Below, one piece after another: positions 25,892 through 27,283 of a stretch of 64,000 nucleotides of DNA. The stretch's first letter is position 1. Each line of letters opens with the position of its first letter. This stretch comes from a virus. Under the pieces are notes generated by a model, which worked only from the letters and a program-made list of their open reading frames with translations, was not told the origin of the DNA and searched no databases. The stretch is from IMG/VR virus record IMGVR_UViG_3300002307_000050; one strand, written 5' to 3'. A program made the translations under genes and the position numbers.

Positions 25892-27283
25892 ATGAAAAAG
25901 CACGAACTTGAATTTCATAAGTACATCATATTCTCGATCTACATGGAGTCGGGTTCGCTTGCTTGGCATCTCATGCAGGAGGGAAAGGACGTCGTGATCG
26001 CGCAGGTTCAGGATCTCCGCACTGTCGGAGTGAAGGAGGCTGAGGATCCTACACTTAAAAAGAAGCGCCTTGAGCCGTACAACGGAATCCTCAAGAAGGC
26101 GAAGGCAGAGAAGATGATCGAAGAGATGGCGAAGATCCCCAACAAGGATGAGTACTTCGTGATCTTCGACTTCAACTCACTTCACCCTTATGCCGAAAAA
26201 GCGTCAAAAATGGGCTTTAGGCACGGTATTTTCCCTACCAAATACGATTATGAGCTCGAAAACGATCGCGCGTGGGCAAAGGAGTTCGTGATGAAGCACT
26301 ACCCAGACCTCAAGGTTGCCGAAGTCGAGGAGTTCAAATCTATCGATGATGGCATCGAGATGGTTGAGGAGTCAGAGGAATTCTGGGCTCTCAAGGGTAA
26401 CGACGTCTCGTGTCAGACGGTAGTGCCTTGTTGCACTAACCTCGAGTTCGCGAAGGCTGAGATCATCGATGCCCTCCGTTCTCACAAGGAGGACTACGAG
26501 CGCAAGGGGTTCATCCTCGAGAGACAGATCCGAGGTGGCGTTGAATTCTGCCCACAGGTCATCTTCTACGATGGCGAGCCGGTAGCCCACTCAGTAGACC
26601 TCGAGAACAAGGCGATCGGTCCGGGAAACGTCGGCATAAAACTCGGTTGCGCGATGAACGTCGTCGCAGAGATCGATGCTGATTCAGAGGTCATCGAACG
26701 CGCATTCCCACCTGCGATGCAGAAGCTCGCAAAGCTCCATAAGGGACTCTTCTACTCGGACTCCAACATCATCATGAAGGACGGAGAGTACTACTATCTC
26801 GAGTTCTGCCAGAATCGATTCGGCTACGATGCGATCCAGACAGAGTGCGAGATGGCGGGAGGAGTTTCAAAGTATTTCGAGGCACTCGCGAACAAGGAGT
26901 CTCCATACGAGCGAAAGTTCGGCGCTGCGGTTCGTGGCGTGAACATGCACAGAGACGGGAAGGGATATGTCATGGGAGACATGCGTATGCGTTGGGATCC
27001 TGAGTCAGAGCCTCACATCTGGCCGTACGACGTTCACCAAGACGACAAGGGCGGGTATGCCAACTCAGGATACGAATGGGAGCTCCTCTCGGTCTTCACC
27101 GGATCATCTGACGACCTCGAGTTCGCCATCATCAAATGCTACGAAGCCGTCGAGAATTTCTCCTTCGACGAGATGTACTATCGAAGTCACGGAGACTTCA
27201 TTGACAGAAGTTATCATGGTAACATCCTTGATCGATACGACTCGATCAAGGGAATCATCTCCTCTGCAGTCGAAGAGGAGTAG
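25892..27283 (+). CDS. PurD-like ATP-grasp ligase (phosphoribosylamine-glycine ligase family), 463 aa, divergent
   Basis: Segments align to E. coli PurD: [27 protein letters not shown] with [41 protein letters not shown] with [28 protein letters not shown] with [26 protein letters not shown] with VIEFNCRFGDPE. Confidence 0.6.
   Translation: [463 protein letters not shown]

Follow-up and report, generated by a model that had tools for sequence, protein, structure and literature searches.

A putative PurD-derived ATP-grasp ligase encoded among the virion genes of a phage

The window analysed here, a 64-kb stretch of DNA from IMG/VR virus record IMGVR_UViG_3300002307_000050, contains a 48,058-bp circular or terminally redundant phage genome which is circularly permuted and read 1.33 times. 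The repeat period is 48,058, with zero mismatches across 15,942 bases, such that positions 48059-64000 duplicate 1-15942. At the end of its late operon, on the plus strand, lies an open reading frame (ORF) of 463 aa (25892-27283), predicted to encode a PurD-derived ATP-grasp ligase, which starts with an ATG located 4 nt past the stop codon of a GroES/Cpn10 gene (25516-25887, plus strand; Pfam Cpn10 1.8e-11, 44.4 bits against a cut-off of 21.1; phrog_3188). The true start of GroES is probably the ATG at 25567. GroES is preceded by the gene for a 930-aa virion protein of the internal or ejection type (22717-25509, plus strand), which yields a weak match to the phrog_184 baseplate hub and has homologues in the related loci L006 and L007. 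The ligase gene is followed by the tiny Lys-rich ORF MPMKKQRMAAGTQKPSSMKKKKAAKMKK (27303-27389, plus strand), the final ORF of the late operon, and by terminator-like hairpins (27343-27407; sites 27369-27343 and 27407-27388 called on the minus strand) located where the late operon and the lysis/early genes converge. No terminator-like sites occur between the 930-aa virion gene and the ligase gene, the hairpins being found only after the latter, and it is therefore plausible that the ligase is co-transcribed with virion genes and GroES. An initial annotation of this DNA had placed the gene next to GroES at the end of the structural operon, and this position is borne out, with GroES directly upstream on the same strand.

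In a public gene call, P0001 (446 aa), the ligase begins at the later Met18. The ATG at 25892 is preferred because homologues align from about residue 8 and because the structural model carries a confident first beta-strand at residues 10-15. We consider it quite likely that the protein is an active amide ligase, distinct from glycinamide ribonucleotide (GAR) synthetase (GARS, PurD), which operates in a module with a 130-aa zincin-like protein, termed p130, and often with a HAD domain.

Relationship of the ligase to PurD

The single ligase sequence, when compared with the sequences of the PDB, matched PurD (5vev) with an E-value of 3.5e-5, and a profile built from 65 homologues produced 11 matches at E<=1, all of which were PurD/GARS, the best at 1e-16. 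Similarly, the TIGR00877 purD model matched at E 2.2e-8, with a score of 33.3 bits against a cut-off of 288, while Pfam GARS_C scored 14.6 bits against a cut-off of 34.8 and GARS_A and GARS_N were not reported. The AlphaFold2 model is very confident, with a predicted local distance difference test score (pLDDT) of 95.2 and a predicted template modelling score (pTM) of 0.93, and it carries the four-domain N-B-A-C architecture of PurD. PurD was the sole family matched by sequence and the top match by structure. The features that define the ATP-grasp superfamily are all present, including the fold, the phosphate-binding Lys, the hinge Glu, the Mg-binding acidic residues and the acyl-phosphate Arg. 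At the level of sequence, the similarity to PurD is far beyond chance, and the comparisons establish the protein as a member of the PurD lineage that retains the catalytic residues of ATP-grasp enzymes. The initial annotation had described a divergent PurD-like ATP-grasp protein, and the profile matches support this; the block alignments that it quoted for the ATP-grasp region and the C-domain were both reproduced by HMMER.

In an exhaustive profile search, 210 clusters of 50% identity matched at E<=1e-30, a number that rose to 701 when the threshold was E<=1e-10. In order to examine the active site, the ligand residues of Aquifex PurD (PMC8880213) were transferred to the ligase through the HMMER alignment and were then assessed for conservation in the family. 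The nine mapped catalytic positions extend from E123 (Aquifex E100) and R126 (K103), through K168 (K143), E210 (E185), E218 (E191/192), E238 (D212, which contacts the glycine amino group) and K240 (K214), to E304 (E283) and R309 (R287). Each of them is invariant or at least 97% conserved. A more distant sister clade, PURD2, also keeps E123, R126, E218, E238, K240, E/D304 and R309.

Other parts of the PurD active site are lost. The roles of Arg13 and Glu14 of the GGREHA loop (human numbering), of the B-loop and of Glu297 of the GDPE motif have been described (PMC2978367), and the former two residues were proposed to hold phosphoribosylamine and the acyl-phosphate (PMC2978367). The GGREHA loop is absent from the ligase, and the family consensus lacks Arg-Glu-His. 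The GLAAGKG B-loop is also absent, the family consensus at the aligned segment being GNxxxAxTVVP. Along the PurD strand E-F-N-x-R-F-G-D-P-E, Glu304 and Arg309 are kept and Asp313 is 86% conserved, while the position of Glu292 in Aquifex, the Glu of GDPE, is not conserved in the family. The Asn of the E-x-N Mg motif corresponds to Cys306, which is Cys in 98% of the set A1 and Cys or Thr in the wider set. Moreover, Asp290, lying 14 residues before Glu304, is invariant, and its spacing suggests that it may occur where other ATP-grasp enzymes place the first Mg ligand. In their place, polar residues specific to the subgroup are conserved, namely R59, D93, N95, R348, R431 and R448, with R59 located on an insertion in the N-domain. 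On this comparison, the elements which in PurD hold phosphoribosylamine and close the active site are replaced by family-specific residues.

Inteins of about 350-390 aa, as judged from total protein lengths, split the ligase in P0113, P0128, P0183, P0196 and P0239 after profile position 304. In the sequences of P0113 and P0183 the intein lies directly before the residue equivalent to Cys306, which constitutes the +1 nucleophile. Such a placement is expected for an active-site strand and is typical of an indispensable one. A role for Cys306 or Cys253 as catalytic thiols or in a thioester was considered and rejected, since about 40% of the wider set have Thr at position 306 and Cys253 lacks conservation.

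No purine genes were found among the window ORFs scanned from the 48-kb genome, nor in the related loci. By its residues and its gene context the ligase is not a GAR synthetase; it departs from PurD in four tested defining features, while its first half-reaction would be PurD-like. These results uphold several points of the initial annotation, namely that canonical PurD residues are substituted (GGREHA, the B-loop, the Asn and the GDPE Glu) and that a purine-biosynthesis enzyme is unexpected at this site. The findings that it named as refuting were not obtained, since the profile search does place the protein in the ATP-grasp/PurD family and neither a canonical active site nor a purine neighbourhood is present. 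As regards the residues that it singled out, the ATP-binding Lys and Glu are kept and the motifs specific for phosphoribosylamine are lost. Its more general proposal, of a repurposed ligase with an undescribed phage function, also stands, although the activities which it suggested, a glutamylation-like modification of virion or host proteins and DNA or nucleotide modification, found no direct evidence.

A phage family and its recurrent partners

The family is essentially restricted to phages. A word-indexed search yielded 87 homologues, nearly all on contigs of 40-50 kb, and an identical ligase protein occurs on a 48,080-bp metagenomic contig. Twenty loci with the ligase were found in IMG/VR, and a scan of one genome per GTDB species detected it on only two small contigs of metagenome-assembled genomes (MAGs). 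The sole clearly chromosomal homologue is carried by Aquicella lusitana (LR699114.1, 1366964-1388379; locus L001), where it follows genes for a PNP_UDP_1 nucleoside phosphorylase and a 4HBT thioesterase, with no phage genes in view and a context that, the phosphorylase aside, is uninformative; its UniRef name is phosphoribosylamine-glycine ligase and some databases label other homologues 'phosphoribosylamine--glycine ligase'. Searching 50,697 phage records by tblastn with the ligase and p130 gave no match. A distant PURD2-type ligase matches two Aquificae virus MAGs in which the gene is annotated 'phosphoribosylaminoimidazole carboxylase', probably a mis-annotation in the case of BK013347.1. 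In the latter, a Thermocrinis virus MAG from Great Boiling Spring, the PURD2-type ATP-grasp gene (10023-11213; 8001-9191 of locus L108) lies two genes past the portal gene, and it is not discussed in the paper describing those Aquificae viruses. Essentially no Pfam or PHROG models exist for the ligase, p130 and most of their neighbours, and in the literature searched we found descriptions of other phage ATP-grasp systems and none of this ligase family.

Comparison of the loci showed that the gene beside the ligase in other phages is homologous to the p130 gene of the window (3682-4074, plus strand). As the window wraps around the genome, this gene appears again at 51740-52132. The IMG/VR search with p130 gave 175 loci, 80 of which were retained, and in 50 of the latter an ATP-grasp ORF of 410-560 aa, belonging either to the PurD-like family or to the divergent PURD2 clade, lies beside p130. 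After removal of near-duplicates, 41 loci carried both genes. The two genes are on the same strand in all 41 non-redundant loci and directly adjacent in 35 of them, with both gene orders occurring (25 and 10) and many 4-nt overlaps. In the present genome p130 is located 22 kb from the ligase, after the DnaJ gene. It carries an invariant motif H49-E50-x-x-E53, together with invariant H102 and E109 on a later helix; the motif is thus HExxE and not the zincin HExxH, and p130 gave weak scores against zincin-like structures and domains with no family match at the sequence level. No fusion of p130 to the ligase was found in 231 sequences, and p130 was rejected as an obligatory partner, given 28 loci with p130 and no ligase within 6 kb and 27 ligase loci with no p130 within reach.

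In a census of 167 full-length family members, an N-terminal domain of about 115 aa with HAD motifs (DxDG[TV], ITG, K, ED) was present in 12, the same domain was C-terminal in P0119 and P0149, and a different HAD-like C-terminal domain, with sub-threshold NT5C matches, was found in two further members, such that about 10% of members carry a HAD-like domain at one terminus or the other. Fusion in both orientations speaks for a functional relationship between the two domains and for a substrate or product that bears a phosphate. A stand-alone phosphatase of the HAD_PNKP type is encoded in the window 1.4 kb from the ligase (28699-29124, minus strand; Pfam HAD_PNKP 3.3e-38, 131.5 bits against a cut-off of 27.6), with the motifs WDIDGT, VTGR and FEDR, and alignment of the fused N-terminal domains to it with hhalign gave a probability of 80.7% (E 1.3e-5). 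Its homologue directly follows the ligase in L006. A PDB profile search with the fused domain recovered only designed proteins, and Pfam was also without confirmation. Three other homologues (P0140, P0162 and P0165) carry 260-310-aa C-terminal extensions consisting of a coiled-coil and a small beta-rich domain, with no Pfam match, which may constitute a virion-targeting or scaffold-like module.

The module always occurs in the late or virion block. In many loci it follows a gene for a 1200-2000-aa virion protein, and in others it comes after one for an approximately 760-aa protein, is flanked by capsid and tail genes, or is close to those for the terminase and portal. One such large protein, whose gene lies two positions upstream in L109, contains LPD38, a domain of polyvalent proteins. 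The ligase family forms a module with p130, its usual partner, and often with a small HAD phosphatase, and this module is predicted to be expressed with the late or virion genes, next to those for large ejection-type proteins and for lysis. In L011-L014 the gene directly before the ligase encodes an aspartate racemase homologue (1jfl, E 1.3e-15), and in L019 such a gene lies two positions upstream. In L109 a Peptidase_M23 gene follows the ligase, with one 41-aa ORF between them, and LysM, PG_binding_1, Phage_lysozyme, Hydrolase_2 and an endolysin-like domain (c30; PDB 7q47, 2.4e-6) occur within a few kb of the module in several lineages. A protein of about 125 aa (c20), encoded near the module in L046, L062, L074-L080 and L098, carries the motif '...F.IHGDS....AS.GCI' and presumably resembles an L,D-transpeptidase/Tlde1-type domain; a PDB sequence search with it gave no match. 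In L004 (11462-21295) the ligase P0085, which is 30% identical, heads an operon for the synthesis of modified sugar nucleotides just upstream of the terminase, with genes for a glycosyltransferase, three methyltransferases, an epimerase/dehydratase, a GHMP kinase, a SIS isomerase and a cytidylyltransferase-like protein.

Genome setting of the ligase gene

The late block on the plus strand runs in the order terminase, GroEL, portal-like protein and DnaJ, and ends with GroES and the ligase. It includes the terminase large subunit (44780-46384), followed by a full-length GroEL (46424-48001; phrog_5725, 2.8e-109), which lies between the terminase and the gene for a 663-aa portal-like protein (236-2227). 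A DnaJ J-domain protein (3143-3685; Pfam DnaJ 8.2e-22) is encoded directly upstream of p130, its stop codon overlapping the p130 start. A 370-aa protein (6657-7769) has as its sole matches Roseobacter phage head proteins, and a 1285-aa protein and tail-fibre-like proteins are also encoded in the block. The 594-aa virion protein (20931-22715) matches DUF3597 and phrog_2307, annotated as L-alanyl-D-glutamate peptidase, in its N-terminal region, which is followed by low-complexity and coiled-coil sequence, and it is probably a cell-wall-binding ejection protein. Immediately before the first late gene there is a tRNA-like gene (43764-43834, plus strand; ARAGORN) with an abnormal two-base anticodon, 'ga'.

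The minus strand of the 27.6-42.9 kb region carries a tRNA-Gln(ttg) gene (27578-27649; ARAGORN), a GH19-like lysin, the HAD_PNKP phosphatase, an SPFH/Band 7 (prohibitin-like) membrane protein (31566-32429; Pfam 2.5e-32), a protein with a Tad2-like (Thoeris anti-defence 2) domain located among the early genes (33066-33392; Pfam E 1.9e-10), and several small genes. Cultured phages encode only remote relatives of the terminase and capsid proteins. The lineage is uncultured and probably podovirus-like, the latter assignment being made because related contigs carry SU10-type adaptors.

Three chaperone-type genes (GroEL, GroES and DnaJ) in a 48-kb phage constitute an unusually rich set for such a genome size. 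Linkage of the ligase to GroES, which had been emphasised initially, is real in this phage; it is, however, confined to its clade (L003 and L005-L007, with the same gene order), and the sole other case is the unrelated locus L112, where Cpn10 lies 2 kb away. GroES, GroEL and DnaJ were consequently rejected as general partners, and the GroES adjacency is a lineage-specific feature of gene order rather than a part of the mechanism. Tiny polycationic ORFs of 23-28 aa, containing about 40% Lys, end the late operon in the window and also follow the ligase in L003, L005, L006 and L007, with a GC-rich hairpin after them in the window, L003 and L005. The encoded peptide may be packaged to condense DNA, may act in lysis as a cationic peptide or may be a substrate of the ligase.

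Possible reactions and comparison with known systems

Because of the chemistry of PurD and other ATP-grasp enzymes, the ligase would be expected to bind Mg-ATP and to form an acyl-phosphate from a small carboxylate of the amino-acid type, held by R309 with its amino group on E238, after which attack of an amine on the acyl-phosphate would generate an amide. The racemase neighbours and loss of the Glu292 contact suggest that a small amino acid, glycine or another and possibly in the D-form, would be the donor. The acceptor would be an amine on a small molecule bearing a phosphate, as suggested by the closed four-domain architecture, the HAD fusions and the conserved arginines; the first two of these features, together with the racemase and sugar-nucleotide neighbours, favour a small phosphorylated acceptor over protein or DNA. 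The themes recurring among the neighbours point to a nucleotide- or sugar-linked precursor of the cell envelope, such as a peptidoglycan or glycan building block, as the most likely acceptor, and the phosphatase and p130 would trim or reverse the product. We give a tentative probability of roughly 0.4 to this composite reading, in which the enzyme would join an amino acid to an amine on a phosphorylated, probably envelope-related, acceptor. A bolder version, which we regard as doubtful, is that the ligase, the HExxE protein p130 and the HAD protein form a previously unrecognised, phage-specific three-enzyme system, produced together with the ejection proteins and possibly delivered with them, that would build or rewrite an amino-acid-amide on a phosphorylated host envelope precursor or nucleotide-sugar. 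Phages would in that case steer the chemistry of the host cell wall or glycans at the expense of ATP, either on entry or ahead of lysis.

Several observations weigh against the envelope-precursor interpretation. Only the neighbouring genes and the fusions point to the donor and the acceptor. Independent loci with the racemase number no more than about three, and the structural or lysis block of any phage commonly contains peptidoglycan hydrolases, such that their proximity may be a coincidence. The HAD assignment of the fused domain derives from its motifs, the 80.7% hhalign probability and the sub-threshold NT5C matches, with Pfam and the PDB profile not confirming it. In the present genome neither p130 nor the HAD gene is adjacent to the ligase. 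Replacement of the Mg-ligand Asn by Cys or Thr could reduce or change catalysis, and the coiled-coil C-terminal extensions fit an enzyme that is tethered to the virion and possibly directed at protein.

The last point leads to the alternative that survives best, and which we nevertheless consider unlikely, namely that the ligase modifies protein. It would attach an amino acid to a virion or host protein, at a side chain or at a terminus, or would form a cross-link there, p130 would act as a processing peptidase or amidase, and the enzyme may be packaged. Candidate targets, named with equal reserve, are the large ejection proteins, the capsid and the tiny Lys-rich peptide encoded downstream. 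Among the domains of polyvalent proteins delivered with virions, those of the zincin-like peptidase type are the most frequent (PMC5512222), and a polyvalent protein with LPD38 is encoded two genes upstream in L109. The invariable location of the ligase among virion and ejection protein genes, the extensions of P0140, P0162 and P0165, the conservation of the tiny polycationic ORFs after the ligase in this clade and the chaperone genes adjoining both the ligase and p130 in the window are likewise consistent with modification of protein. The phosphatase-like fusions and the racemase and sugar-nucleotide linkage are, however, hard to explain on this basis, and the Lys-rich ORF occurs in one clade only.

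Somewhat less probable still is a role in counter-defence or nucleic-acid chemistry, in which the ligase would amidate a ribosylamine- or ADP-ribose-type compound, an immune signal or the precursor of a modified base, with the PNKP-type phosphatase processing the phosphate. The ancestral PurD acylates a ribosylamine phosphate, the associated phosphatase falls in the PNKP 3'-phosphatase family, the Aquicella homologue directly follows PNP_UDP_1, and the Tad2-like anti-Thoeris gene indicates that this phage invests in counter-defence. Yet the ribose- and phosphate-binding motifs of PurD are not conserved, the ligase gene lies in the late structural block and not with the early and anti-defence genes, and no recognisable gene for a DNA polymerase, a hydroxymethylase or base modification is present among the window ORFs scanned; moreover, the racemase and peptidoglycan-type neighbours are left unexplained.

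Two further explanations are very improbable. That the gene is an ordinary auxiliary metabolic gene (AMG), a fast-evolving genuine GAR synthetase that boosts host purine synthesis, would accord with PurD being the only family found by sequence and the best by structure, with the names given to homologues in databases and with conservation of the glycine-contacting Asp212 and Arg287 as E238 and R309, but it is contradicted by the 33 bits obtained against a 288-bit equivalog cut-off, by family-wide loss of GGREHA, the B-loop, the Asn ligand and the GDPE Glu, by the lack of other pur genes among the window ORFs scanned, by conserved partners of the zincin-like and phosphatase types, as opposed to PurF or PurN, and by the near absence of the family from cellular genomes. 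A catalytically dead structural or scaffold protein retaining the PurD fold would account for the replaced Asn Mg ligand and B-loop and for the location among structural genes, but the catalytic Lys, Glu and Arg residues are invariant in more than 200 clusters and two deep clades, Asp290 would, to judge from its spacing, supply an additional invariant residue at a position like that of an Mg ligand, and inteins target the active-site strand.

If the interpretation as an envelope-precursor ligase is correct, phages have recruited PurD, which ranks among the most conserved enzymes of central metabolism, and re-tooled it into a new ligase family whose members fall into hundreds of sequence clusters, lack a Pfam or PHROG family and make no known product. 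The invariant core, the metallohydrolase partner, the phosphatase fusions and the racemase and sugar-nucleotide neighbours provide handles for discovery. Once identified, the product would bring a new reaction into phage biology, whether in editing of envelope precursors, in modification of the virion or host or in synthesis of a new metabolite, and annotation pipelines would then have grounds for not calling such genes phosphoribosylamine--glycine ligase AMGs.

Among known systems the closest is PurD itself (EC 6.3.4.13; TIGR00877; GARS_N/A/C), to which the ligase is 18% identical, far below all curated thresholds. It differs in carrying an insertion of about 30 residues in the N-domain, which includes R59, and an extra C-terminal helix, and in its context, which is that of phages and of pairing with p130 and HAD proteins rather than of the purine pathway. 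PurT and PurK are clearly more distant than PurD, yielding no sequence matches and lacking a C domain of the GARS type. LUZ24-like and related phages encode a cluster of ATP-grasp, amidoligase and glutamine amidotransferase proteins (PMC3890496, PMC6209634) to which the present ligase is unrelated. Their ATP-grasp protein is likewise a phage enzyme of unknown product, but it is about 290 aa in size and is encoded in an early or replication module with a COOH-NH2 ligase, GATase and AIG2, partners that the ligase described here does not have. As regards p130, it is distinguished from the zincin domains of polyvalent proteins, from minigluzincins and from IrrE/ImmA/CapP by HExxE in place of HExxH and by weak scores.

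Two further systems offer parallels in organisation. Enterococcus and Lactococcus employ a D-aspartate ligase and an aspartate racemase in forming the peptidoglycan cross-bridge, and the VanA/VanX/VanT proteins follow a comparable logic. The likeness to the present module, which may be one of analogy, lies in an ATP-grasp enzyme accompanied by a racemase and a metallo-peptidase-like partner in a peptidoglycan-related neighbourhood. In glutathionylspermidine synthetase/amidase an ATP-grasp amide ligase is fused to an amidase, a cysteine hydrolase of the CHAP type. Although the folds and substrates are unrelated, the pairing of the ligase with p130 may be analogous, with p130 acting, as the amidase does, to trim or reverse the product of the ligase.

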